Source: a virus
DNA length: 64,000 bases
Reading direction: 5' to 3' (one strand)
Virus record (IMG/VR): IMGVR_UViG_3300012347_000286
Location: 3,266-67,265 of that record
A program made the translations under genes and the position numbers. The notes beneath the pieces are model-generated. The model saw only the letters and a list, made by a program, of their open reading frames with translations. It was not told the origin of the DNA and did not search any database. The stretch's first letter is position 1; each line of letters opens with the position of its first letter. Below, in pieces: positions 6,494-60,720 of this stretch.

Positions 6494-7531
6494 ATGACTA
6501 TGACTACATCTACACACACAAAACGTATCGGCTTTGCTTGCAAATGGGCAGAGATTAACAAAAAAGGCGAGATTGCTAGTGCTGAGGGCCTGAACACAGG
6601 TGGCACTACTCTTGCATGGGCGAATCGCAACAAGCGTGATATCGTGGAACAAAAGATTATTGACGTTGCAAAAACTAACATTGTCAATACCCACGCACTC
6701 ATTAAGAAAGTCGCAACACTTCCTAATGAATTACGCATGTTGCGATTGACTTCGGATATGTTGTCATTCTATACACATGATGCCTATACAGACTTCTGGC
6801 AAAGCAAGTACATGCAAGATTCACTTGCTCGATGGTTCGCCCCACTAGGTGAAACAGCACGACAAAACAATGTTCGTCTAAGTTTTCACCCCGACCAGTT
6901 TGTAGTTCTTGCAAGTGACCGTGACGATGTAGTAAACAATTCAATTAGGGAGTTCGAGTATCATGCAGACATGGCCCGCTGGCTTGGTTATGGCAAGTCA
7001 TTCCAAGATTTTAAAATCAATGTACATATCTCAGGCCGCAAGGGCCCGCAAGGCATTAGAGATGTATACGGCCGTCTTAGCCCTGAAGCACGTAACTGTC
7101 TAACACTAGAGAACGAGGAATACACGCATGGACTTAATGATACTCTATTACTATCTGATATCGTTCCCACTGTACTTGACATTCATCATCATTGGATCCG
7201 GGAAGGGGAATATATCTCGCCTAGCGATGACCGCGTCAAACGTGTTATCGATAGCTGGCGCGGTACTCGCCCCACTCTACACTATAGTGTTAGTCGTGAG
7301 GATGTACTTGTGGGGCACTCAGCTACAATCAGTCCAGACCACACTCAACTGATTACTGAAGGACTAAGTAAACAAAAGCTCCGCGCTCATAGTGACTACT
7401 ACTGGAATGATTCAGTAAATAATTGGGCACTGTCATTCTTAGATAAATTCGATATGATGTGTGAAAGTAAAGCTAAGAACTTAGCCAGCTTTAAACTATA
7501 CGAAAAGGCAAAACAAGATGGGATTATTTGA
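6494..7531 (+). CDS. uvdE: UV damage endonuclease UvdE
   Basis: Blocks VRLSFHPDQFVVLAS, NVHISG, LTLENEE, DIHHHW and RAHSDYY align with Bacillus/S. pombe UvdE (SFHPNQF, NIHIGG, LENDD, HHF, RSHADY). Confidence 0.8.
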   Translation: MTMTTSTHTKRIGFACKWAEINKKGEIASAEGLNTGGTTLAWANRNKRDIVEQKIIDVAKTNIVNTHALIKKVATLPNELRMLRLTSDMLSFYTHDAYTDFWQSKYMQDSLARWFAPLGETARQNNVRLSFHPDQFVVLASDRDDVVNNSIREFEYHADMARWLGYGKSFQDFKINVHISGRKGPQGIRDVYGRLSPEARNCLTLENEEYTHGLNDTLLLSDIVPTVLDIHHHWIREGEYISPSDDRVKRVIDSWRGTRPTLHYSVSREDVLVGHSATISPDHTQLITEGLSKQKLRAHSDYYWNDSVNNWALSFLDKFDMMCESKAKNLASFKLYEKAKQDGII

Positions 7532-7940
7532 TAAATTAAAAGAGGTCTTTAATAAGAAGGAAGAAAAACTTCCTGAACCAAAGAAGGCTCCTAAGGTTAA
7601 GGAACCAACCAAAGAGCTAACTGAAAAAGAGAAAGCTACACTAGCGGGTGAACCCTATGTCTCGATTATCTCGGTTGACTTGGATCCTAATGATATAAAC
7701 AACGGGGCTTTTGAACTTGACTACAACGAAAAATTTGTTGTAAATTTGATTAGAGCAGGGTATAAGTTTAAAGACAGTGACACAGATAATACTATCGTAG
7801 ACAGATGGTTTCAAAATGTATGTCGAAATGTTGCATTAGAAGTCTATGAGCAGGTCCAAGCAGACCCATCCAATCGCAATGAGGATCTTCGTAACATTCG
7901 ACAACGAGACATTGGCAACGGTCGCACAGAAGTAAGCTAA
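7518..7940 (+). CDS. hypothetical protein (140 aa)
   Basis: Track ORF, overlaps the uvdE end. Confidence 0.55.
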   Translation: MGLFDKLKEVFNKKEEKLPEPKKAPKVKEPTKELTEKEKATLAGEPYVSIISVDLDPNDINNGAFELDYNEKFVVNLIRAGYKFKDSDTDNTIVDRWFQNVCRNVALEVYEQVQADPSNRNEDLRNIRQRDIGNGRTEVS

Positions 7941-7952
7941 AAGTACTCATAT

Positions 7953-7990
7953 TAAAAGTCAACAAAAAGGTTGACTTTTATTCTTTTTGG
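7953..7990 (+). terminator. rho-independent terminator (10-bp perfect hairpin AAAAGTCAAC/GTTGACTTTT plus T-run) overlapping the next -35
   Basis: Inverted repeat at 7953-7962 and 7969-7978 is followed by TTATTCTTTTT. Confidence 0.6.
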
Positions 7991-7999
7991 TTGTATAAT
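7971..7999 (+). promoter_or_regulatory. sigma70-type promoter (TTGACT-17-TATAAT)
   Basis: -35 at 7971-7976 and -10 at 7994-7999, upstream of the 8034 start. Confidence 0.7.
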
Positions 8000-8033
8000 A
8001 GATTCATCTTGTAAGCAACTCAATGGAGTAAAA

Positions 8034-9362
8034 ATGGCAACAGTAGTAGCAACATCTAAATTGGCAAAAACAAAAGTAAAGCCAAAAGTTAATATCAAAA
8101 CAGCACGTAAGTCAACATTCGGGCTCACCTTTGATTATTTCAAACGTGACCCAAATGGTCGTCAAATTAATAACATCCTTGAACGTAAGCCCGGGCAGTA
8201 TGCACAAATCTCAATCGAAGATTTAGTTAACAAAGTTAACACTGGTGGCAACATTGATTTTATGTCAGCTCTTGAGCGTTATCAAAAGCTGGCAATTATG
8301 TTCGACCCAGCAAACTTCCCTGTGACTGGAATGGTCCTGCTAGGCGACTTGGCAAGTGACGAAGACATTCAGCGTGAGTTAGATGTGCCTCACGCTACGA
8401 ACATTTTTGCATACTTTGATGAACAACGTGTCCAGTCTATTCAGGCTGTGAAGACACCTGGCAAGCAAGAATATACAATGGTAAACGGACAACATACTGC
8501 AACTACCGTTGCGTTGATTGTTGCATCGGGTTTGATGAAGGGTTGGAAAGCTAAAGATTGGAAGAAGTTCCCAATCTTAGTTTCATACATTGAAACACTG
8601 GATCGTAGTAAAGCACGTGAAACGTTTGCTTTGTTGAACGGCGAAATGTCAAAAGACATTACAACTTTCGACCACTGGAAGCAACACTATTTGTCAGTTC
8701 GTTTAGATGGTAGCAAGAATCCAAAGTACTTGCACACTGCAAAACTGATTCAAATCTTAAAGACTTACGAATGCATTCCCTTACCAGAAGACCATGATGA
8801 TGCAGGTATGGCAGGTGCAGTTACTCACTTGAACGCTGTGGAAACAGCAGCCAAAGGTGGTGACTATGAGAAGTTAGAATTCATCTTTGCAAATCGTAAC
8901 AAGTTCTGGAACAGTCTCCCAGTTGATAACACTGAATTTGGTTTCTACGGTACTCTGTTAGATATCACTGAGGCAGAAAATATCTTGCGTAACTCGCAAG
9001 ATTTTGAAGAATTTGTCGAAGACATTCATGCAGTGGTGCAAAAAGTATTCTCGGGTATGCCTAAGCTGAAGGGCAGTGTTACCAAAGCGTACAAAAAGTA
9101 TCGCTATGACCAATTTGTTGATAAGAACGCAAGTGTCCCATTCAACGTTGCGCTGTATGTTACCTATAAAGTTTACAAGATGCTTGGTGGTACATTTGAT
9201 ATCGCTCCGCTGAATTCAATGTACGTTCACAACAAGGTTGATGTGTTGCACTACCTCACTGATGATGAACTTGCATTCATTAACAAACTGGTTCCTGCTA
9301 AGAGCAAACTCAAAGGCAAGAACGTAGTGATTCCAAAAGCTACTAAAAAGAAAGTAAAGTAA
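8034..9362 (+). CDS. DGQHR-domain (DndB/DpdB-like, ParB-fold) protein, divergent
   Basis: GGAG RBS. MVNGQHTATTVALIV resembles the DGQHR motif of DndB/DpdB. The first 21 codons of track ORF 7971.. lie inside the promoter. Confidence 0.5.
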   Translation: MATVVATSKLAKTKVKPKVNIKTARKSTFGLTFDYFKRDPNGRQINNILERKPGQYAQISIEDLVNKVNTGGNIDFMSALERYQKLAIMFDPANFPVTGMVLLGDLASDEDIQRELDVPHATNIFAYFDEQRVQSIQAVKTPGKQEYTMVNGQHTATTVALIVASGLMKGWKAKDWKKFPILVSYIETLDRSKARETFALLNGEMSKDITTFDHWKQHYLSVRLDGSKNPKYLHTAKLIQILKTYECIPLPEDHDDAGMAGAVTHLNAVETAAKGGDYEKLEFIFANRNKFWNSLPVDNTEFGFYGTLLDITEAENILRNSQDFEEFVEDIHAVVQKVFSGMPKLKGSVTKAYKKYRYDQFVDKNASVPFNVALYVTYKVYKMLGGTFDIAPLNSMYVHNKVDVLHYLTDDELAFINKLVPAKSKLKGKNVVIPKATKKKVK

Positions 9363-9363
9363 A

Positions 9364-9783
9364 ATGTTGAATTGCTTCTTCTACATCATGGTGCTTACAC
9401 ACAATGGTAAAGTTGGATTTGGAATTACTGGCAATGTACACAATCGTATTTTCGACTACATTGCTGGTTCTGCTGAGTTACAATCGTTCAAGTATCTCTA
9501 TTACGGCTCCCGTGCTGACATTGCCGATATTGAGAAGAAACTCAAAGCTGAGTGGAAACGACACATGTGGAAAGTGTTCAAAGGTAACAAATGGACTCTT
9601 GAAATTCTTGACCCATCGTCAGGGCTGTCAGCAGAAGATGTACAAGAATGGGTAAACAATAAGATTGTTGAACTCAACTTACCTATCCGTGTCATTAAAG
9701 ATGAATGGTTGCCCTATCAAGGTGACAAGCGAGTTACCCGTAAATTCATTGAACTTAGCCCAGATATGTATCTTGAGCCTTGA
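9364..9783 (+). CDS. hypothetical protein (139 aa)
   Basis: Track ORF immediately after the upstream stop. Confidence 0.5.
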   Translation: MLNCFFYIMVLTHNGKVGFGITGNVHNRIFDYIAGSAELQSFKYLYYGSRADIADIEKKLKAEWKRHMWKVFKGNKWTLEILDPSSGLSAEDVQEWVNNKIVELNLPIRVIKDEWLPYQGDKRVTRKFIELSPDMYLEP

Positions 9784-9808
9784 CATTTTCTAAATATACG
9801 TATATAAT
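9780..9808 (+). promoter_or_regulatory. sigma70 promoter (TTGACA-17-TATAAT); FEN ATG lies only 6 nt downstream of the -10
   Basis: -35 at 9780-9785 and -10 at 9803-9808; ATG at 9815. Confidence 0.7.
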
Positions 9809-9814
9809 AGACAC

Positions 9815-10828
9815 ATGAAATACGCACTAATCGACACAGCAAACACATTCTTCCGCGCACGACACATTGCTTCTCGTCAAGCAGACACGTGGGAAAAAAT
9901 CGGAATGGCAATTCACTTGACACTCGCTAGTACTAATAGTGTGGTAAATAAGTTTGGAATTGACCATGTAGTCTTTTGCTTAGAAGGTAGGAGCTTTCGT
10001 AAGTCTATCTCCCCTGCATACAAAGCGCATCGTGCAGTAGCACGACAGGCTGCGACAGAAGCTGAAAAAGAAGAATCAGAAATGTTTTGGGAAACTTACG
10101 GCGCATTCACAGAATTCTTGCAAGAGAAAACTAACTGTAGTGTCCTGCGTCATCCCGAAGCAGAAGCAGACGATATGATTGCACGTTTCATTCATCTACA
10201 TCCCGATGATGAACATTTTATTATCAGCACAGACAGCGACTATCACCAATTAATTTCTGAAAAAGTTTCGCAGTTCAATGGAGTTACTAATGAACTCATT
10301 AAACTCGACGGTTACTACAATGATAAGGGCAAACTAATCATTGATAAGAAGACTAAAGAGCCTAAGTTGTTAGACGACCCCGAGTATATTCTATTCAAGA
10401 AAATCATTCGCGGTGACGCAGGCGACAACGTATTCAGTGCATTTCCTGGCGTACGTGAGATTGGTACTAAAACCAAAGTAGGTATTCGTGAAGCATTTGA
10501 AGACCGTAATAGTCAAGGCTTTAAATGGAATAACTTCATGTTACAGCGTTGGACTGACCATGATAATGTTGAGCATCGTGTAAAAGACAAATATGAATTG
10601 AACAAGATTCTGATTGACTTGAAAGCTCAACCTCAAGAAATTAAAGATAAAGTCGATGCGACTATCAAATCAGATGTGCGTGTTACTACTACCCCGCAAG
10701 TTGGTATTAATTTGATGAAGCTGTGTGGAAAATATGAACTTACGAAAATCTCTCAGCAGGCTGATAGCTATGCTAAATGGCTTAACCTCCCATATAAGGG
10801 CCAAGTACATGAATCACATCCTGCATAA
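9815..10828 (+). CDS. flap endonuclease / 5'-3' exonuclease (T5 D15 / T4 RNase H family)
   Basis: MKYALIDTANTFFRARH N-terminus and IISTDSDYHQL acidic clusters are typical of PIN-like 5' nucleases. Confidence 0.85.
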   Translation: MKYALIDTANTFFRARHIASRQADTWEKIGMAIHLTLASTNSVVNKFGIDHVVFCLEGRSFRKSISPAYKAHRAVARQAATEAEKEESEMFWETYGAFTEFLQEKTNCSVLRHPEAEADDMIARFIHLHPDDEHFIISTDSDYHQLISEKVSQFNGVTNELIKLDGYYNDKGKLIIDKKTKEPKLLDDPEYILFKKIIRGDAGDNVFSAFPGVREIGTKTKVGIREAFEDRNSQGFKWNNFMLQRWTDHDNVEHRVKDKYELNKILIDLKAQPQEIKDKVDATIKSDVRVTTTPQVGINLMKLCGKYELTKISQQADSYAKWLNLPYKGQVHESHPA

Positions 10829-18913: not shown

Positions 18914-20251
18914 ATGACAGCAAGTTGGATTAACAAGTTAAACGAATCAGATAGTCGCCTTCACAAAGAAGACGTAGTAAAGCAAGCACTTGAGGCGTGT
19001 GTTCTAGGGAGTGTCAACGCACAGACTTTCTTAGGACTAGCTAAAGCAACTTATAATCCATATGTCACGTTCGGTGTCAAACAAATTCCAGATACAGTAG
19101 GTATCGTCGGCGCTGAGAACCCTTGGCAGGATTTCAACGAACTGTTGATTCAATTATCTCAGCGCCGACTTACTGGTCACGCGGCACGTGATGCTATTCA
19201 AAACATGGCTGAACGTTTTGACAGTGATGAATGGAATACATTCTGTGCGGCAGTACTGCGCCGAGACTTACGTGCAGGTATCTCTAGCACAACTATCAAC
19301 AAAATCTGTAAAAAGACTGATTGGGAAATTCCAGTGTTCGGTTGCCAACTAGCAACTAACAGTGAAGGTCGCCCTGAAATGAAGGGTATCAAACGACTTG
19401 AGCCTAAGTTAGATGGTGTGCGTATGTTGTTGATGGTCATCCCAAGTGATGATGGTGAAATCACTACAATCGCATTTAGCCGTAACGGCAAAACATTTGA
19501 TAACTTTGGTCATATCGAAGACCAAGTACGTGACAACTTTAACAAGTTGGTTCGCAAAGCCGCAACAAGTAACTTGAGCATGGGCTTTGTTATGGACGGT
19601 GAAGTGATTGGTAATAGCTTCCAAGAACTTATGCGACAAGCACGCCGCAAATCAGACGTTCAAGCTGAGGATTCAGTCTACAACGTGTTCGACATTATTC
19701 CTCTTGATGCCTTCCGTGAAGGTCATTGGAATGCTCAACTAGAAAAGCGTATCAAAATTCTTGACGACATGCGTCCAGTGTTTGATGACATGGCTAGTCT
19801 TGAATTGTTGCCACACATCATGGTTGACTTAGACACAGCAGCCGGTAAAGACCAGCTTGAGCGTTATGCACAAGATAATGTCAAGGCAGGCTTTGAAGGT
19901 ATTATGATTAAGGAAATGCAAGCTCCTTATATCTGCAAGCGTAGTACAGACTGGATGAAGTGGAAGCCAGTCATCACGGTAGATTTAGAAGTTATCGGCA
20001 TCGAAGAAGGCACCGGTCGTAACGCAGGTCGTTTGGGTGCATTAGTTTGTAATGGAGTAGATGATGGTAAGGAAATCACAGTCAATGTGGGTAGTGGTTT
20101 TAGTGACAGTGACCGAGATAACTATTGGCGTGATAGCAATTTCATCATTGGTCGAACTGCTGAGGTCATGTGTGATGTGATTACACAAAACCAAGATGGT
20201 ACTTACAGTTTGCGTTTCCCTCGCTTTGTTCGTTTCCGGGATGACAAATGA
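18914..20251 (+). CDS. ATP-dependent DNA ligase
   Basis: KLDGVR (motif I, adenylated Lys), EGIMIK (motif IV) and LRFPRFVRFRDDK (motif VI). Confidence 0.85.
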   Translation: MTASWINKLNESDSRLHKEDVVKQALEACVLGSVNAQTFLGLAKATYNPYVTFGVKQIPDTVGIVGAENPWQDFNELLIQLSQRRLTGHAARDAIQNMAERFDSDEWNTFCAAVLRRDLRAGISSTTINKICKKTDWEIPVFGCQLATNSEGRPEMKGIKRLEPKLDGVRMLLMVIPSDDGEITTIAFSRNGKTFDNFGHIEDQVRDNFNKLVRKAATSNLSMGFVMDGEVIGNSFQELMRQARRKSDVQAEDSVYNVFDIIPLDAFREGHWNAQLEKRIKILDDMRPVFDDMASLELLPHIMVDLDTAAGKDQLERYAQDNVKAGFEGIMIKEMQAPYICKRSTDWMKWKPVITVDLEVIGIEEGTGRNAGRLGALVCNGVDDGKEITVNVGSGFSDSDRDNYWRDSNFIIGRTAEVMCDVITQNQDGTYSLRFPRFVRFRDDK

Positions 20252-26056: not shown

Positions 26057-27937
26057 ATGAGCAAAGTCATCGGTATCGACCTCGGTACCACAAATTCATG
26101 CGTAGCCGTTATTGAAAACGGAATCCCCAAAGTTATTGAGAATTCAGAAGGTGCTAGAACAACACCATCTATCGTTGCTTACACAAGTGATGAAATTCTA
26201 GTAGGCGCAAGCGCAAAGCGTCAGGCAGTAACAAACCCAAAGAACACAGTATACGCAAGCAAGCGTTTAATCGGTCGCAAGTTCGCCGAAGAAGCTGTCC
26301 AAAAAGATATTAATTTGATGCCATACAAAATCGTTGCTAATGACAACGGTGATGCATGGGTTCAAGTTAACGAAGATAAGTTAGCACCTCCGCAAATCTC
26401 AGCAGAAGTATTGCGCAAGATGAAGAAGACTGCGGAAGACTATCTAGGTGAAGAAGTCACCCAAGCAGTTATCACAGTTCCAGCATACTTTAACGATAGT
26501 CAACGTCAAGCAACGAAAGATGCTGGTCGTATTGCTGGTCTAGAAGTATTGCGTATTATCAACGAACCAACAGCAGCCGCACTAGCATACGGTGTTGACA
26601 AGCAAGACAAGAAAGACCGTAAAGTCGCAGTCTATGACTTAGGTGGAGGTACGTTTGACGTATCTATCATTGAGTTGGCAGACGTTGATGGTGATAAGCA
26701 GATTGAAGTTCTATCAACAAACGGCGACACTTTCTTGGGCGGTGAAGATTTCGACCAACGCATCATGGATTACTTGGTTGAAGAGTTTAAGAAAGAGTCC
26801 GGCGTTGACTTGACTAAAGACGTTCTTGCATTGCAACGTTTGAAAGAAGCCGCAGAGAAGGCTAAGATTGAATTGTCAAGTTCACAAAGCACAAGTGTTA
26901 ACTTGCCATACGTTACAGCAGACGCATCAGGTCCTAAACACTTGAACGTTACAATCAATCGTGCTAAGTTGGAACAACTAGTTGATGAATTGATTCAACG
27001 TAGTCTTGCCCCATGTAAGCAAGCGATGAAGGATGCAGGCGTTACTGCAAGTGACATTGACGAAGTTATCTTAGTCGGTGGTATGACACGTATGCCAAAG
27101 GTGCAAGAAGTTGTTGAACAATTGTTTGGCAAAGCACCTCGCAAAGATGTTAACCCAGACGAAGCAGTTGCCGCTGGTGCAGCTATTCAAGGTTCTGTTC
27201 TAGCAGGTGACCGTACTGACGTTCTATTGCTTGACGTTACTCCACTATCATTGGGTATCGAAACGATGGGCAATGTGTTCTCAAAAGTTATCAACAAGAA
27301 TACAACTATCCCTACTAAGGCTTCACAGACTTTCAGTACAGCACAGGACAATCAACCTGCTGTTACAATCAAAGTAGGACAGGGTGAGCGTGAACTATTC
27401 CAATATAATAAAGTACTTGGTGAGTTCAACTTAGATGGTATTGCACCAGCACCCCGCGGTATGCCTCAAATCGAAGTTACGTTTGATATTGACGCAAACG
27501 GTATCATGCACATCAGTGCTAAAGACAAGGGTACAGGTAAAGAGAACAAAATCACTATCAAGTCTAACTCAGGTTTGACAGAAGCAGAGATTCAGCAAAT
27601 GGTTAAAGATGCTGAGGACAATGCAGAAGCAGATAAGAAACACGTTGAATTGGTACAAGCACGTAACGGTGCTGAAGGTACGTACAACACGTTTAAGAAA
27701 GACTTTGATTCATACAAGGATCAAGTAACAGAAGAAGAACGTACCAAAGCAGAAGAAGCATTGAACGCTATTCAAGAGGCACTTAAAGGTGAAGATGTAG
27801 AAGCAATTCAAAAAGCTACTACTGATTTGTATCAATCGATTGGTCCAATCACCGCTAAGAAGCACGAAGCAGAAGAGGCTGCAAAGCCAAAAGCTGATGA
27901 CAACATCACTGATGCAGAAGTTAAGGAGGCGGTATGA
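26057..27937 (+). CDS. dnaK: DnaK (Hsp70) chaperone
   Basis: [22 protein letters not shown] and [11 protein letters not shown] are Hsp70 signatures; full-length. Confidence 0.95.
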
Positions 27938-43559: not shown

Positions 43560-44342
43560 TTATCTTCCTATGTACTTCTTGGGCAACGCCTCAAGTCTAC
43601 GTTGTTCTTCTGTCTTGGGTATCCAACCCTCACCGTATTGCGGGTATTTCCTAATACGGTCTTCTACTACTAATGCGAATGATATGCCTATGCCGGCAGC
43701 TAATATTACTGCTCCGATTCCCCAAGTCGCTTCAATCCAAAGTAGTTGAATTCTTTTCTTGATCCTGCGGCTTCTTGCTTGCTCATTCTGCATCTTCTGT
43801 TGAATGAGTTTTCGCTGGGTTTCTCCCATCTTACCCATCATTGCTTCTACTTCAGAATACAATGCACCAAGTTCTGGTGGCGATTGATATACCATTAGTT
43901 CACGCAGGTCCACTGACATTTGTTCTAGTTGCTTACGCATTAGAACACGTTGCAAAGCACGTTTACCTAGACTAGCATCTCCGTCATAAACCTCTGTCTC
44001 AGCACGTAGTTCTTCTTCTTCCATGATAGCTAAACACTTATGGAAGTTATCATAGTATGCACCCAAATGCTCACCAATCTCTTGATATACGCCTGTGTGC
44101 TGCCCTTCATTGGCTTTCTTGTTTAGCTCAATTACACTATTTTTTTCTTTAATGAATTGGTTTCGTTGTTCTACTGTGGCAGGCTTTTCGGGCGGGTGGA
44201 GCTTCTTAAACTGTTCATCAAGGTCTTTGATGACGTCCTTTACTTCTCCAGCAGCACCCTTGATGTCCTTATAGAGCTTACACCCAGCTTTTACAGCAGA
44301 TACAGCCCCGTTGGCAAGCGCAAACAGCGTTAACGGATCCAT
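43560..44342 (-). CDS. hypothetical protein (260 aa) with C-terminal TM segment
   Basis: Track ORF. Confidence 0.55.
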   Translation of the reverse strand: MDPLTLFALANGAVSAVKAGCKLYKDIKGAAGEVKDVIKDLDEQFKKLHPPEKPATVEQRNQFIKEKNSVIELNKKANEGQHTGVYQEIGEHLGAYYDNFHKCLAIMEEEELRAETEVYDGDASLGKRALQRVLMRKQLEQMSVDLRELMVYQSPPELGALYSEVEAMMGKMGETQRKLIQQKMQNEQARSRRIKKRIQLLWIEATWGIGAVILAAGIGISFALVVEDRIRKYPQYGEGWIPKTEEQRRLEALPKKYIGR

Positions 44343-59319: not shown

Positions 59320-60720
59320 TTATTTGCGAGAGTTTGCTCGGACTTCGTCAAAAGTGTAAGACTTTGTAAGACTACCATCTTCGTAGACAGTAACCAATGC
59401 GTCAGTCCAACCACCAATGCCTTTGTCTGACCAACCTGTTGGGGCTGATACACCAGATGCATATTCGCCACCACTGTTAGTGAACAAACGAACACGACCA
59501 CCTTTACTACGTTTGCCTGAGTCAGTGATAGGATCCTTGACTACATCGATCCATTTACCATCGACCTGGACACTTGAGCATTTCATTGCGAAACGTTGGG
59601 TGTCGCGGTCCACGATTTGCAACAACGCTCCACCCATGCCAAAAGCAATATTATCAGCACTGTACCCAAGAGCCATAAAAGCACCGAGAATCCCGCGAAT
59701 AGTAAGTTCATTTACACCATCTCCTTGAATGAGGCGAACGTTGTTCAACACTTTAAAGCCTTTAGAGTTTTTCACACTACCGAACTTCATGTCCAGAATT
59801 TGTACCAACTCTTTGTTGACTGTGATAGGATCACCTGAGTCAGGACGAATCACAACCACTGCACCACTATCAATAACTTGTTGACGCAATTCTTCACCCC
59901 AGATTTTACTGGCTGCGTTGAAAATGTCGTAGCTATCAGATACAAACGCAACGATAGAGCCGGGCTTACCGTATTGTGTTAACATGTTGCTGTAGGCTTT
60001 TGCTTCGTTTTCACGGCCCCAACTTGTTACAGTGCTGTGCTCCATTGCAGGAATGCTGTAACCGCAAACGTCAGCATCATAATACTCCATAGCGTACAGA
60101 ATACCAGTAATAGTGTCGGTACCCATAAAGTTAATGAGATGTCCCGCACCACCAATCCCAGCGCTTTCAAGAGAGCTAACGCCCCGAGCACCGAAATCGT
60201 GTAACTTAAAATCAATACCACTTGGGTCTCCTGTCTTTTCTAAGTACTCGGCAATCACTTTCTTGATTGTGTAAGATTGTGTTGCCACTGTTGTGCCATA
60301 CCACACTGCACGAAGCAATGATGTTTCAAGCCAAGTTGTCAACCAGAAACAGTTAGGGTCTGTGTTCTCAATTGTTGCAAGTACGTTCGAGACCGGAACA
60401 ACAGAGCCTTCGGGTACCGCTCTAATAACAACTGGGAGATATCCGTTGTGGTTGTCAAGAATGTACTGCCATCCTTCTCGGTTAAAGGGGACACCGTGTG
60501 CTGTGAGGATTTTGTCTGCGGTGTCAATGTCAGCTTGGGTAATTGGGCTGAGTAAGTATTCTTTGATAAAAGCCTGTAATCCGAAGAATACCGTTCTATC
60601 ATAACGGCCCCCTCGTGACTCAATGTACGAGTATACACCTGTAGTTCCTACTGGATATTGTTTGAACATTGATACTTTATAGCTATCTGTGTTCAGGATG
60701 ATGTTTTTAGCGAGTTTCAT
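59320..60720 (-). CDS. nadV: nicotinamide phosphoribosyltransferase (NAMPT / NadV)
   Basis: N-terminal NIILNTDSYKVSMFKQYP and overall length are typical of NadV (as in KVP40-type phages). Confidence 0.9.
   Translation of the reverse strand: MKLAKNIILNTDSYKVSMFKQYPVGTTGVYSYIESRGGRYDRTVFFGLQAFIKEYLLSPITQADIDTADKILTAHGVPFNREGWQYILDNHNGYLPVVIRAVPEGSVVPVSNVLATIENTDPNCFWLTTWLETSLLRAVWYGTTVATQSYTIKKVIAEYLEKTGDPSGIDFKLHDFGARGVSSLESAGIGGAGHLINFMGTDTITGILYAMEYYDADVCGYSIPAMEHSTVTSWGRENEAKAYSNMLTQYGKPGSIVAFVSDSYDIFNAASKIWGEELRQQVIDSGAVVVIRPDSGDPITVNKELVQILDMKFGSVKNSKGFKVLNNVRLIQGDGVNELTIRGILGAFMALGYSADNIAFGMGGALLQIVDRDTQRFAMKCSSVQVDGKWIDVVKDPITDSGKRSKGGRVRLFTNSGGEYASGVSAPTGWSDKGIGGWTDALVTVYEDGSLTKSYTFDEVRANSRK

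Follow-up and report, generated by a model that had tools for sequence, protein, structure and literature searches.

The open reading frame at positions 8034-9362 of the window, the 64,000-nucleotide stretch of viral DNA that was analysed, raises the question of whether its product serves the deazaguanine/sugar cluster that lies upstream or belongs to a different functional unit. A sequence-only reading had described the product as a divergent DGQHR-domain protein of the DndB/DpdB type and had connected it with DNA-modification machinery. The protein, its transcription unit, its neighbours and its relatives in other phage loci were therefore analysed. Features are on the + strand unless stated otherwise.

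The 442-aa product is a divergent ParB/Srx-fold protein

The ORF has an ATG start, is preceded by a GGAG Shine-Dalgarno sequence (8023-8026) and encodes a ParB/Srx-fold, DGQHR-like protein of 442 aa (50 kDa) with an acidic core and basic tails. The N-terminal tail (residues 1-28, 8034-8117) was predicted to be disordered (pLDDT <50) and is Lys-rich (pI 11.5), poorly conserved and missing in the majority of distant relatives. The ParB/Srx-fold core (residues 96-228, 8319-8717) is the best-conserved region, with a mean pairwise identity of 0.69. It is followed by an all-helical C-terminal domain (residues 229-420, 8718-9293), in which PGAxT (residues 260-264) and E301 are the conserved features and no His-Me/HNH-type motif was conserved across the wider family. 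The C-terminal tail (residues 421-442, 9294-9359) is also Lys-rich (pI 10.9) and is specific to the subfamily.

The sequence MVNGQHTATTVALIV occupies residues 149-163 (8478-8522), and the NGQHT pentapeptide noted earlier was located within it as N151-G-Q-H-T155 (8484-8498), a variant of the DGQHR/GxxR phosphate-binding motif. It falls at a strand-to-helix junction (strand 147-151, helix 153-164), which is the site of GxxR in ParB. In an alignment of 32 homologues (41-89% identity) residues V150, N151, G152, H154 and T155 were invariant and Q153 was present in at least 90%. The family consensus of the pentapeptide is DGQHT; among 111 members the first position was D in 87, N in 13 and E in 11, and the last was T in 96 and R in 5. 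As judged from these alignments, the replacement of Arg by Thr is a property of the whole family and that of Asp by Asn is a trait of the subclade to which the window protein belongs. ParB and SspE-type proteins need the Arg of the GxxR/DGQHR motif to bind NTP. Since Thr stands at this site and, in the subclade, Asn stands at the Asp site, NTPase activity may have been lost or altered.

Two companion motifs were found, a QR pair at Q113-R114 (8370-8375; R in 111/111 and Q in 105/111 family members) and an FxxxN motif at F198-x-x-x-N202 (8625-8639; F in 97/111, N in 105/111). Together with a nearly invariant DGQHR pentapeptide, these motifs define the DGQHR domain (PMC4619093). The window protein has the QR pair, the FxxxN motif and the ParB/Srx fold, and carries NGQHT in place of the pentapeptide. 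Its family resembles DGQHR/DndB proteins (TIGR03187/PF14072) in this fold, in the order of QR, D/N-G-Q-H and FxxxN, in its helical C-terminal domain and overall length of approximately 400 aa and in the weak but consistent profile matches of its members; it differs in the family-wide Thr and in the Asn of the subclade. The pentapeptide by itself is without significance, and it is the fold and the profile evidence that carry the assignment. The window contains a second match to [DNE]GQH[RT], an EGQHT in ORF 43560-44342 on the - strand, which was dismissed as a chance occurrence in an unrelated ORF (hhalign probability 1.9%).

When the protein itself was used as the query, there was no relevant match in Pfam, PHROGs, NCBIfam or PADLOC, and the ParB, DndB (PF14072) and DUF262 models gave none at E<=10; the proposed membership of DGQHR/ParB-like families was not borne out at this level. 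TIGR03187 (DGQHR) was weakly matched by 19 of the 111 family members, all distant relatives (best E 5.4e-6), where approximately 0.0006 members per single model would be expected by chance. In one such relative the match, which spanned the DGQH-to-FxxxN region, scored 17.4 bits compared to a curated cut-off of 58.85, and all of the sequence-profile matches of the relatives lay far under curated thresholds. The relatives that bear Arg had been expected to be those that matched TIGR03187, an expectation that proved wrong (0/10). Other weak matches within the family were to PF14072 DndB (2/111), DUF6551 (PF20188; 9/111) and phrog_1033 'ParB-like' (8/111). DUF6551 and phrog_1033 proteins share a phage-borne ParB fold with this family, and CTP or ATP is bound by phage proteins of the DUF6551 group (bioRxiv 10.1101/2025.10.10.680097), a paper that mentions no nuclease partner for them. 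The window protein differs in matching neither model.

PDB sequence searches with the family profiles A1 and A2 returned noise only. The family profile retrieved 178 clusters at 50% identity, and a repeat word-indexed search with the A2 profile added almost no new members. Neither the protein nor its distant relative P0123 had a match by megablast and tblastn among 50,697 GenBank phages, and a 1103-aa protein of the window also was without a match there. From these searches, the phage clade is one without a close cultured relative. The only match in the genome collection was a contig of 2.1 kb in the bin of a Flavobacteriales MAG. The product is a very divergent ParB/Srx-fold protein of the DGQHR-like branch, from uncultured giant (jumbo) freshwater phages.

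The gene is set apart from the deazaguanine/sugar cluster

Upstream of the gene lies an inverted repeat (7953-7980; dG -12.2 kcal/mol, z -2.9) whose 11-bp arms pair perfectly around a loop of 6 nt. A T-run comes after it, which suggests a terminator-like hairpin for the preceding 140-aa gene. The 3' arm of the hairpin also contains the -35 box of a predicted sigma-70-type promoter (GGTTGACT-N17-TATAAT, 7969-7999) of a two-gene unit, in which TTGACT-17-TATAAT (7971-7999) matches the consensus at 11 of 12 positions. The promoter and the terminator that the sequence-only reading had assigned to this gene were thus both recovered, the latter as a terminator-like element. It is a member of an extended promoter class, GGTTGAC-N18-TAnnAT, of which the window contains 7 copies compared to 0.04 expected. 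With a strict pattern, 13 of 19 related loci had a TTGAC..TAnnnT element upstream of the gene, at a distance of approximately 60 nt. The sequence of the hairpin was not conserved across related loci. At the other end, a perfect TTGACA-17-TATAAT promoter (9780-9808) of the next gene, which encodes a 5'-3' exonuclease (9815-10828), delimits the two-gene unit on its downstream side.

The gene does follow the deazaguanine/sugar cluster, as had been stated, but UvdE (6494-7531) and the 140-aa ORF (7518-7940) intervene. A helper of the DndB/DpdB type would be an NTPase that helps to insert or to regulate the modification, 7-deazaguanine or sugar, for which this cluster codes. The hairpin and the separate promoter, as well as the two intervening genes, split the gene from the cluster, and its divergence does not track that of UvdE or p140, the genes in between (r ~0.3). 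The expected co-occurrence with QueD/E was seen in one lineage only: of 23 NGQHT-group loci, 11 had QueD in the upstream flank, compared to 0/45 loci of the sister DGQHT group, where QueE was nearby in 5/45. QueD was absent upstream in L003, L004 and L019, three loci that retain the gene without the cluster upstream.

The link with Dnd or Dpd modification likewise was not supported. TGT/DpdA (PF01702), QueC and Dnd families were not found in the Pfam-annotated flanks of five loci (L001, L003, L004, L008 and L009), and there were no dndCDE-type families within +/-10 kb of these loci or among the scanned window genes. A crude, low-sensitivity motif scan for DSGGF/CxCxxC in the real genes of the window, which is part of a >300-kb genome, also was negative. 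DpdB's ATPase activity is stimulated by DNA and DpdA. DpdB, which has a DGQQR motif and works with DpdA (PMC10164549), resembles the window protein in its N-terminal ParB fold and a helical C-terminal domain without a nuclease motif; the differences are the NGQHT motif, the lack of a DpdA-like gene among those found and an association with QueD/E that is not family-wide. The proposed DndB/DpdB-type core stood in part: the ParB/Srx fold, the QR and FxxxN motifs and the weak matches of relatives agree with it, but the pentapeptide does not agree with the DGQQR of DpdB. The gene also differs from dndB in being carried by a phage, in its pairing with a GIY-YIG gene and in its lack of dndCDE neighbours (DndC is PAPS-reductase-like, DndD SMC-like). 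A role as helper to the modification cluster is very unlikely.

A GIY-YIG gene is the partner of the ParB-fold gene

The second gene of the unit (9364-9783) starts 1 nt past the stop codon of the first and encodes a 139-aa protein with the alpha/beta fold of GIY-YIG nucleases. Its top structural matches were SLX1-type nucleases, from which (with HIGLE) it differs in a sequence identity of 7-14%, in having no RING/zinc-finger domain and in a second Tyr that is Phe. Residues Y7, R28, Y32, E57 and E80 were invariant among 65 unique sequences, and the Tyr of YIG was replaced by Phe in 62 of these; the assignment of the invariant residues to the catalytic sites of the superfamily, namely the Tyr of GIY, the Tyr of YIG, an Arg and a Glu, is tentative and follows the motif spacing of I-TevI and UvrC. 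Profile matches were marginal. Pfam PF01541 was matched by 3/16 partner homologues, the best (E 0.0066) below threshold, and phrog_681 'endonuclease' matched the partner at 3.3e-4. An hhalign comparison of the partner profile with the Pfam-annotated GIY-YIG ORF of L008 aligned the first 19 residues only and was non-significant.

A GIY-YIG ORF adjoined the family gene in 50/55 clusters at 90% identity and in 9/11 at 50% identity. The intergenic gaps ranged from -31 to +8 nt, and the two genes are mostly translationally coupled. In L183 and L186 the partners were GIY-like and more divergent. The pairwise identity matrices of the two proteins were correlated with r=0.98 (Mantel p=2e-4), compared to 0.38 with FEN and 0.29 with UvdE; the correlation between these two flanks was itself 0.63. 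Linkage alone may make adjoining genes co-diverge. The pair was found intact in changed neighbourhoods, beside a ligase gene in L086 and L108 and with FEN upstream of it in L100. In L042 the slot of the partner was taken by an ORF that contains a classical HNH motif, and no GIY-YIG ORF was found there; the HNH assignment rests on the motif, the PDB sequence search was negative, and the ORF follows at a gap of 33 nt and is not translationally coupled. The functional unit is the ParB-fold gene together with the GIY-YIG gene, and not the adjacent deazaguanine/sugar genes.

If the GIY-YIG neighbour were unrelated to it, the 442-aa protein could be a stand-alone ParB-like DNA-binding protein, either a partition or condensation factor or a transcriptional regulator of the DndB/KorB type that binds the inverted repeat covering the -35 box of its own gene. 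The ParB fold, the basic tails and the perfect repeat that overlaps its own promoter agree with such a role, and DndB is an autoregulator (PMC4507180). In the most distant branch, WDGQHT (L010-L012), there was no nuclease neighbour and the neighbouring genes were not partner-like. Canonical ParB, the partition CTPase, has ParA as its partner, carries GERRxRA as box II and binds DNA through an HTH domain. In contrast, no GE[RH]R motif was present in window ORFs of at least 80 aa, the 442-aa protein included; this protein had no ParBc/HTH Pfam match, and ParA was not among the neighbours in L001, L003, L004, L008 and L009. The proposed operator is the hairpin that varies between related loci, and a near-universal, co-diverging and translationally coupled nuclease partner would stay unexplained. 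A stand-alone role is highly improbable.

The pair behaves as an accessory module

In 56 loci selected by FEN, the family gene lay just upstream of FEN in 24, of which 20 had a recognised GIY-YIG ORF directly after it. The p140|FEN junction was empty in 11/56 and held different cargo in 21/56. Because the module was missing in 32/56 loci and was replaced by other cargo, its behaviour is accessory and not core. The pair sits in a variable hotspot and shifts between genomic neighbourhoods.

These data bear on a role in phage DNA repair or recombination, in which a Slx1-Slx4-like, structure-specific GIY-YIG endonuclease with its scaffold or activator would act with UvdE, the 5'-3' exonuclease and ligase on phage DNA. 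SLX1-type nucleases require a partner subunit. The structural matches of the 139-aa protein are to such partner-dependent enzymes, the flanks of the NGQHT-group module are UvdE (20/23 loci) and FEN (33/33 loci), and ligase adjoins the module in the two loci mentioned above. However, the partner subunit here has a ParB fold and is not Slx4-like, the junction often lacks the module, the median identity of the module was 0.51 compared to 0.69-0.72 for the repair genes, and its history is incongruent with theirs. A repair function is unlikely.

Presence/absence polymorphism at a fixed junction, empty sites included, would also be produced by a selfish mobile cassette, with a GIY-YIG homing endonuclease and the ParB-fold gene as its DNA-binding subunit or as a co-converted gene. 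The varied genomic positions, the phylogeny incongruent with the flanks and the hairpin-plus-promoter elements at the cassette borders are consistent with this, and free-standing GIY-YIG homing-type ORFs occur elsewhere in related phages (L008, L009). On the other hand, the partner is 102-157 aa long and without a DNA-binding extension, compared to Seg-like ORFs of 226 aa. Homing genes typically decay, but here the pairing persists to approximately 28% identity, the genes are translationally coupled and both proteins are under strong purifying selection. Within the N/DGQHT groups the ParB-fold gene was never found intact without a nuclease. We regard a selfish mobile cassette as quite unlikely.

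A candidate split nuclease and its place among phage conflict systems

We favour, at slightly better than even odds (a probability of roughly 0.55), the reading that ORFs 8034-9362 and 9364-9783 form a two-gene accessory module of an uncultured jumbo phage clade, a split ParB-fold and nuclease system. The pair is probably a two-part DNA-cutting machine. The module would be transcribed from its host-type sigma-70 promoter. In the physical complex that we infer, the ParB-fold protein would be the nucleotide- and DNA-binding subunit, with a loading, sensing or regulating role and presumptive NTP binding, and the GIY-YIG protein would be the catalytic subunit with nuclease activity. The substrate would most plausibly be non-self DNA, of the host or of a rival phage, or alternatively branched phage DNA.

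Nucleases of various families are frequent fusion partners of DGQHR/DUF262 ParB-like domains (PMC3632139). By analogy, the split nuclease would be akin to the ParB-fold and nuclease combinations GmrS/GmrD, SspE and BrxU. A picture is emerging in which ParB/Srx-fold DGQxR domains are general nucleotide-gated modules that act on DNA in partition, in defence (GmrSD, SspE, BrxU) and in DNA modification (DndB, DpdB). GmrSD, BrxU and SspE are host defence systems in which a DUF262 ParB-fold NTPase (DGQQR) is combined, usually by fusion, with a DUF1524 His-Me/HNH-type nuclease. In contrast, the module described here has a separate GIY-YIG nuclease and a D/NGQHT motif, is phage-encoded and gave no PF03235 or PADLOC match; the likeness to GmrSD is in the general ParB-fold and nuclease logic only, and by this analogy the module may be read as a variant of the GmrSD/SspE theme.

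A bolder proposal, which we consider doubtful, is that the module is an undescribed, widespread 'restriction-like' weapon of freshwater jumbo phages. A split system of D/NGQHT ParB-fold sensor and GIY-YIG nuclease would then travel as a mobile cassette within a hypervariable hotspot. It would attack the DNA of the host or of rival phages and destroy it depending on its modification state, and the phage's own DNA would be shielded by the modification genes. If true, such a weapon would mirror the GmrSD/SspE of bacteria.

Although common among uncultured jumbo phages, the family largely escapes Pfam, PHROGs, NCBIfam and PADLOC, and no report of a DGQHT-type ParB fold tied to a separate GIY-YIG nuclease was found in the literature consulted. 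The variable p140|FEN junction offers a ready site at which to look for more accessory systems of phages. Should the pair be a nuclease under nucleotide control, the Thr that replaces a supposedly essential Arg would be a natural test of the role of the GxxR arginine, and the theme of ParB fold and nuclease would be extended to the phages' side in this conflict.

Gene organisation and transcription unit

The ORF that the sequence-only reading took for a divergent DndB/DpdB-type DGQHR protein was present at 8034-9362 (+). It has an ATG start with GGAG seven nucleotides 5' and encodes 442 aa, including MVNGQHTATTVALIV at residues 149-163; the NGQHT pentapeptide is encoded at 8484-8498 (+). The consensus promoter and upstream terminator ascribed to it were also found, as TTGACT-17-TATAAT at 7971-7999 (+) and, starting 5' of this promoter and overlapping its -35 box, a terminator-like perfect 11-bp hairpin with a T-run on its 3' side (7953-7980; dG -12.2 kcal/mol, z -2.9). 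The promoter is a member of the extended class GGTTGAC-N18-TAnnAT, which occurs seven times in the window, where 0.04 copies would be expected (7969, 15704 and 34117; on the minus strand 51997, 52200, 53728 and 57179); a hairpin arm contains the -35 box of the copy at 7969. Since a perfect TTGACA-17-TATAAT promoter (9780-9808) lies 5' of the next large gene, the transcription unit consists of ORF 8034-9362 and the 139-aa ORF at 9364-9783 (+). A hairpin directly 5' of TTGACA was common among related loci, an arrangement similar to the promoter-stem-loop cassettes associated with gene shuffling in T4-type phages.

Fold and family of the 442-aa protein

The protein was shown to have a DGQHR-like ParB/Srx fold. 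The values listed for it were 9.1 for PadC, 8.9 for SbnI, 8.6 for sulfiredoxin, 8.5 for free serine kinase, 8.3 for pNOB8 ParB-N, 7.7 for KorB, 7.0 for Atu1540, 5.3 for SspE and 4.6 for BrxU. NGQHT falls where strand 147-151 meets helix 153-164, the position of GxxR in ParB. The top BFVD match was an uncharacterised full-length phage protein (E 1e-16, TM 0.64/0.73); the next matches carried ParB/sulfiredoxin or sulfur-modification protein labels. Beyond the ParB/Srx fold, the 442-aa protein forms a helical C-terminal domain that lacks any conserved His-Me motif, and an acidic core lies between two Lys-rich disordered tails.

The proposed DGQHR/ParB placement held at the superfamily level only, as none of the Pfam (PF14072 included), PHROG, NCBIfam or PADLOC models matched the 442-aa protein itself. 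When 111 family members were scanned singly, TIGR03187 (DGQHR) was matched by 19 (best E 5.4e-6), every other model in that scan being matched by no more than two; DUF6551 was matched by nine members, phrog_1033 'ParB-like partition protein' by eight and PF14072 (DndB) by two. The one TIGR03187 match inspected scored 17.4 bits (cut-off 58.85) and covered the DGQH-to-FxxxN region. Three elements define the DGQHR domain, namely a QR pair, the pentapeptide and FxxxN (PMC4619093); the 442-aa protein keeps two of them intact, plus three of the five pentapeptide residues. Its predicted mode is similar to that of the DndB/DpdB/GmrS class, but it falls outside strict membership, lacking the DGQHR or DGQQR arginine, scoring below threshold and having no Dnd, Dpd or DUF1524 partners. 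The most apt description of the protein is a new branch, specific to phages, within the DGQHR-like ParB/Srx superfamily, one that has entered a new partnership with a nuclease.

A large metagenomic protein collection held 57 homologues (43-94% identity, all unnamed) on contigs reaching 301 and 362 kb, and a profile run against 1.84 billion representatives yielded 178 clusters of about 370-460 aa; no relative was detectable by megablast or tblastn in 50,697 GenBank phages. The sole match among 185,579 species genomes was a 2.1-kb contig (L040, CAIUKX010000078.1) binned in an uncultured Flavobacteriales MAG. This placement is probably a binning artefact, because TTGACA/TATAAT phage promoters are not expected for a Bacteroidota host.

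Alignment of 32 homologues showed V150, N151, G152, H154 and T155 to be invariant and Q153 nearly so; the same holds for D109, R114, H120, R195, F198, N202 and a WKQHYLSV block. The pattern common to the 111 full-length members was I-D-x-x-x-Q-R-x-L-x3-H-x3-I, W-D-G-Q-H-T, R-x2-F-x3-N-G-x-G-K, R-x-D and P-G-A-x-T. The last pentapeptide position was T in 96 members and R in five, so Thr-for-Arg is a hallmark of the entire family. Position 1 was D in 87, N in 13 and E in 11, and Asn-for-Asp is peculiar to the subclade of the window. An unrelated 260-aa ORF of the window, 43560-44342 (-), also has EGQHT; it was rejected as a relative (hhalign against the family profile, probability 1.9%), and because of this chance occurrence the pentapeptide alone is weak evidence and not diagnostic.

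Pairing with a GIY-YIG protein

Among related loci, 34 had sequence downstream, and all of them kept the order family gene, 139-aa GIY-YIG-fold ORF, FEN (5'-3' exonuclease, 9815-10828); within the pair the gap was -4 to +3 nt in 32. With a broader scan of IMG/VR the set grew to 113 loci carrying a full-length family gene, and a GIY-YIG-like ORF was adjacent in 50 of 55 clusters (90% identity; gaps -31 to +8 nt). Two of the other clusters ran into a contig edge, two formed a distant WDGQHT branch with other neighbours, and one (L042) had a 135-aa HNH-motif ORF (DINHKDGN...NIEILCKMCH) in the partner slot, followed by FEN. The pair is obligately adjacent, usually with translational coupling. The L042 ORF (2381-2788), beside a DGQHT relative of 31% identity, may have taken the place of the nuclease partner without being homologous to it; it had no PDB sequence match and was assigned to HNH from its motif only.

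Y7, G18, G20, R28, Y32, G48, E57 and E80 were invariant in 65 unique partners, and position 19 was Phe in 62. As judged from the sequences, predicted nuclease-type residues are under strong purifying selection. At L027 (IMGVR_UViG_3300048625_000064, 235-2009), about 91% identical to the window in DNA across the gene, frameshifts (13 gaps) break up the ParB-fold gene and a deletion of ~29 nt truncates the GIY-YIG ORF, a pattern that could reflect joint decay of both genes or assembly error.

Co-divergence and mobility of the pair

Pairwise identity matrices were compared over 26 non-identical loci. The family gene correlated tightly with the 139-aa ORF (r 0.98, Mantel p=2e-4), compared with 0.38 for FEN and 0.29 for UvdE; the two flanks, UvdE and FEN, gave 0.63. 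The pair was also more divergent, with a median identity of 0.51 versus 0.69-0.72 for the flanks. In L013 the pair was 88% and 86% identical and FEN 66%; in L005 the pair was 35% and 38%, FEN 71% and UvdE 81%. The intact pair adjoins ligase in L086 and L108, and in L100 p140 (the 140-aa ORF, 7518-7940 in the window) adjoins FEN, with the pair 3 kb downstream. The two genes co-diverge and move together. Base composition gave no sign of recent foreign origin.

Of the loci selected by FEN only, 56 had enough upstream sequence, and in 24 of these the family gene lay close upstream of FEN: 20 had a recognised GIY-YIG ORF directly 3' of it, two (L156, L179) had the pair plus one extra ORF ahead of FEN, and two apparent exceptions (L183, L186) had more divergent GIY-like ORFs (LYI...PGIT...R..Y). 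In 11 loci p140 was followed directly by FEN, and 21 had other cargo at this junction. These counts make the p140|FEN junction a variable hotspot, with the pair as accessory cargo. Given its mobility, the pair may alternatively be a selfish cassette. At the junction, which is hypervariable in this phage group (7940-9815 in the window; comparison loci L119, L121, L129, L134, L137 and L146), alternative cargo included a 193-199-aa plus 263-aa pair, the latter with 'REHIVP', recalling the EHxxP His-Me nuclease motif, and a 454-aa plus 622-aa pair in L137. The 140-aa ORF matches phrog_13349 'virion structural protein' (E 1e-12), yet lies among DNA-metabolism genes.

Relation to the deazaguanine/sugar cluster

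Upstream of the 442-aa gene are a cytidylyltransferase-like gene, PTPS/QueD, a QueE-like gene, a class II aldolase, a GT1 glycosyltransferase, an SDR epimerase, UvdE and the 140-aa ORF; the 139-aa ORF and FEN lie downstream. The functional tie to this cluster that had been proposed was not borne out, the QueD/E cluster being absent upstream in L003, L004 and L019. Co-occurrence with QueD/E was seen in the NGQHT group (FEN downstream 33/33, UvdE 20/23, QueE 14/23, QueD 11/23) and hardly in the DGQHT group (27/56, 7/45, 5/45 and 0/45, respectively); association with all four genes is lineage-dependent.

The QueE-like protein (2145-2999) has the FYSIQGEG...GCNFTC start typical of QueE, with the third Cys of CxxxCxxC substituted (CNFTCGGF) and only a weak Radical_SAM match (E 0.0033). 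A crude motif scan of the window found no QueC (SGGxDS) and no TGT/DpdA motif. The FolE-PTPS-SDR-glycosyltransferase set could make a product other than DNA 7-deazaguanine, e.g. a pterin glycoside. In the relatives L008 (332-1015) and L009 (2301-2981), free-standing Seg-like GIY-YIG ORFs of 226-227 aa are inserted in the FolE/QueD cluster; these ORFs, which the window lacks, are probably homing endonucleases.

Elsewhere, the window encodes a DnaK/Hsp70 (26057-27937) ~69% identical to bacterial DnaK, with phage relatives that include 480-735-kb megaphage contigs, and a nicotinamide phosphoribosyltransferase (59320-60720, -).

Proposed role of the pair

We infer that the two proteins would form a split enzyme, because DGQHR/DUF262 ParB-like domains are repeatedly joined with HNH, PD-(D/E)xK or HEPN nucleases (PMC3632139; PMC4619093), the motif serves NTPase activity in SspE and DpdB (PMC10164549), and phage ParB-fold/DUF6551 proteins bind CTP or ATP (bioRxiv 10.1101/2025.10.10.680097). 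The ParB-fold subunit would bind DNA, probably also a nucleotide, and would load, position or license the GIY-YIG catalytic subunit. The R-to-T change, with D-to-N in the subclade of the window, suggests that hydrolysis is altered or lost, and the 442-aa protein may act not as a motor but as a binding switch.

The pair may alternatively act in repair or recombination, given the SLX1-like fold of the partner and the UvdE/FEN/ligase surroundings. In the window, UvdE (UV-damage endonuclease, 6494-7531), FEN and an ATP-dependent DNA ligase (18914-20251) could themselves constitute an alternative excision-repair set carried by the phage. Its location in a hotspot, its fast and incongruent evolution and its early-type promoter favour a role for the pair in conflict, directed at the DNA of the host or of rival phages. 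The conserved module that joins a ParB-fold with a GIY-YIG protein is the more interesting finding.
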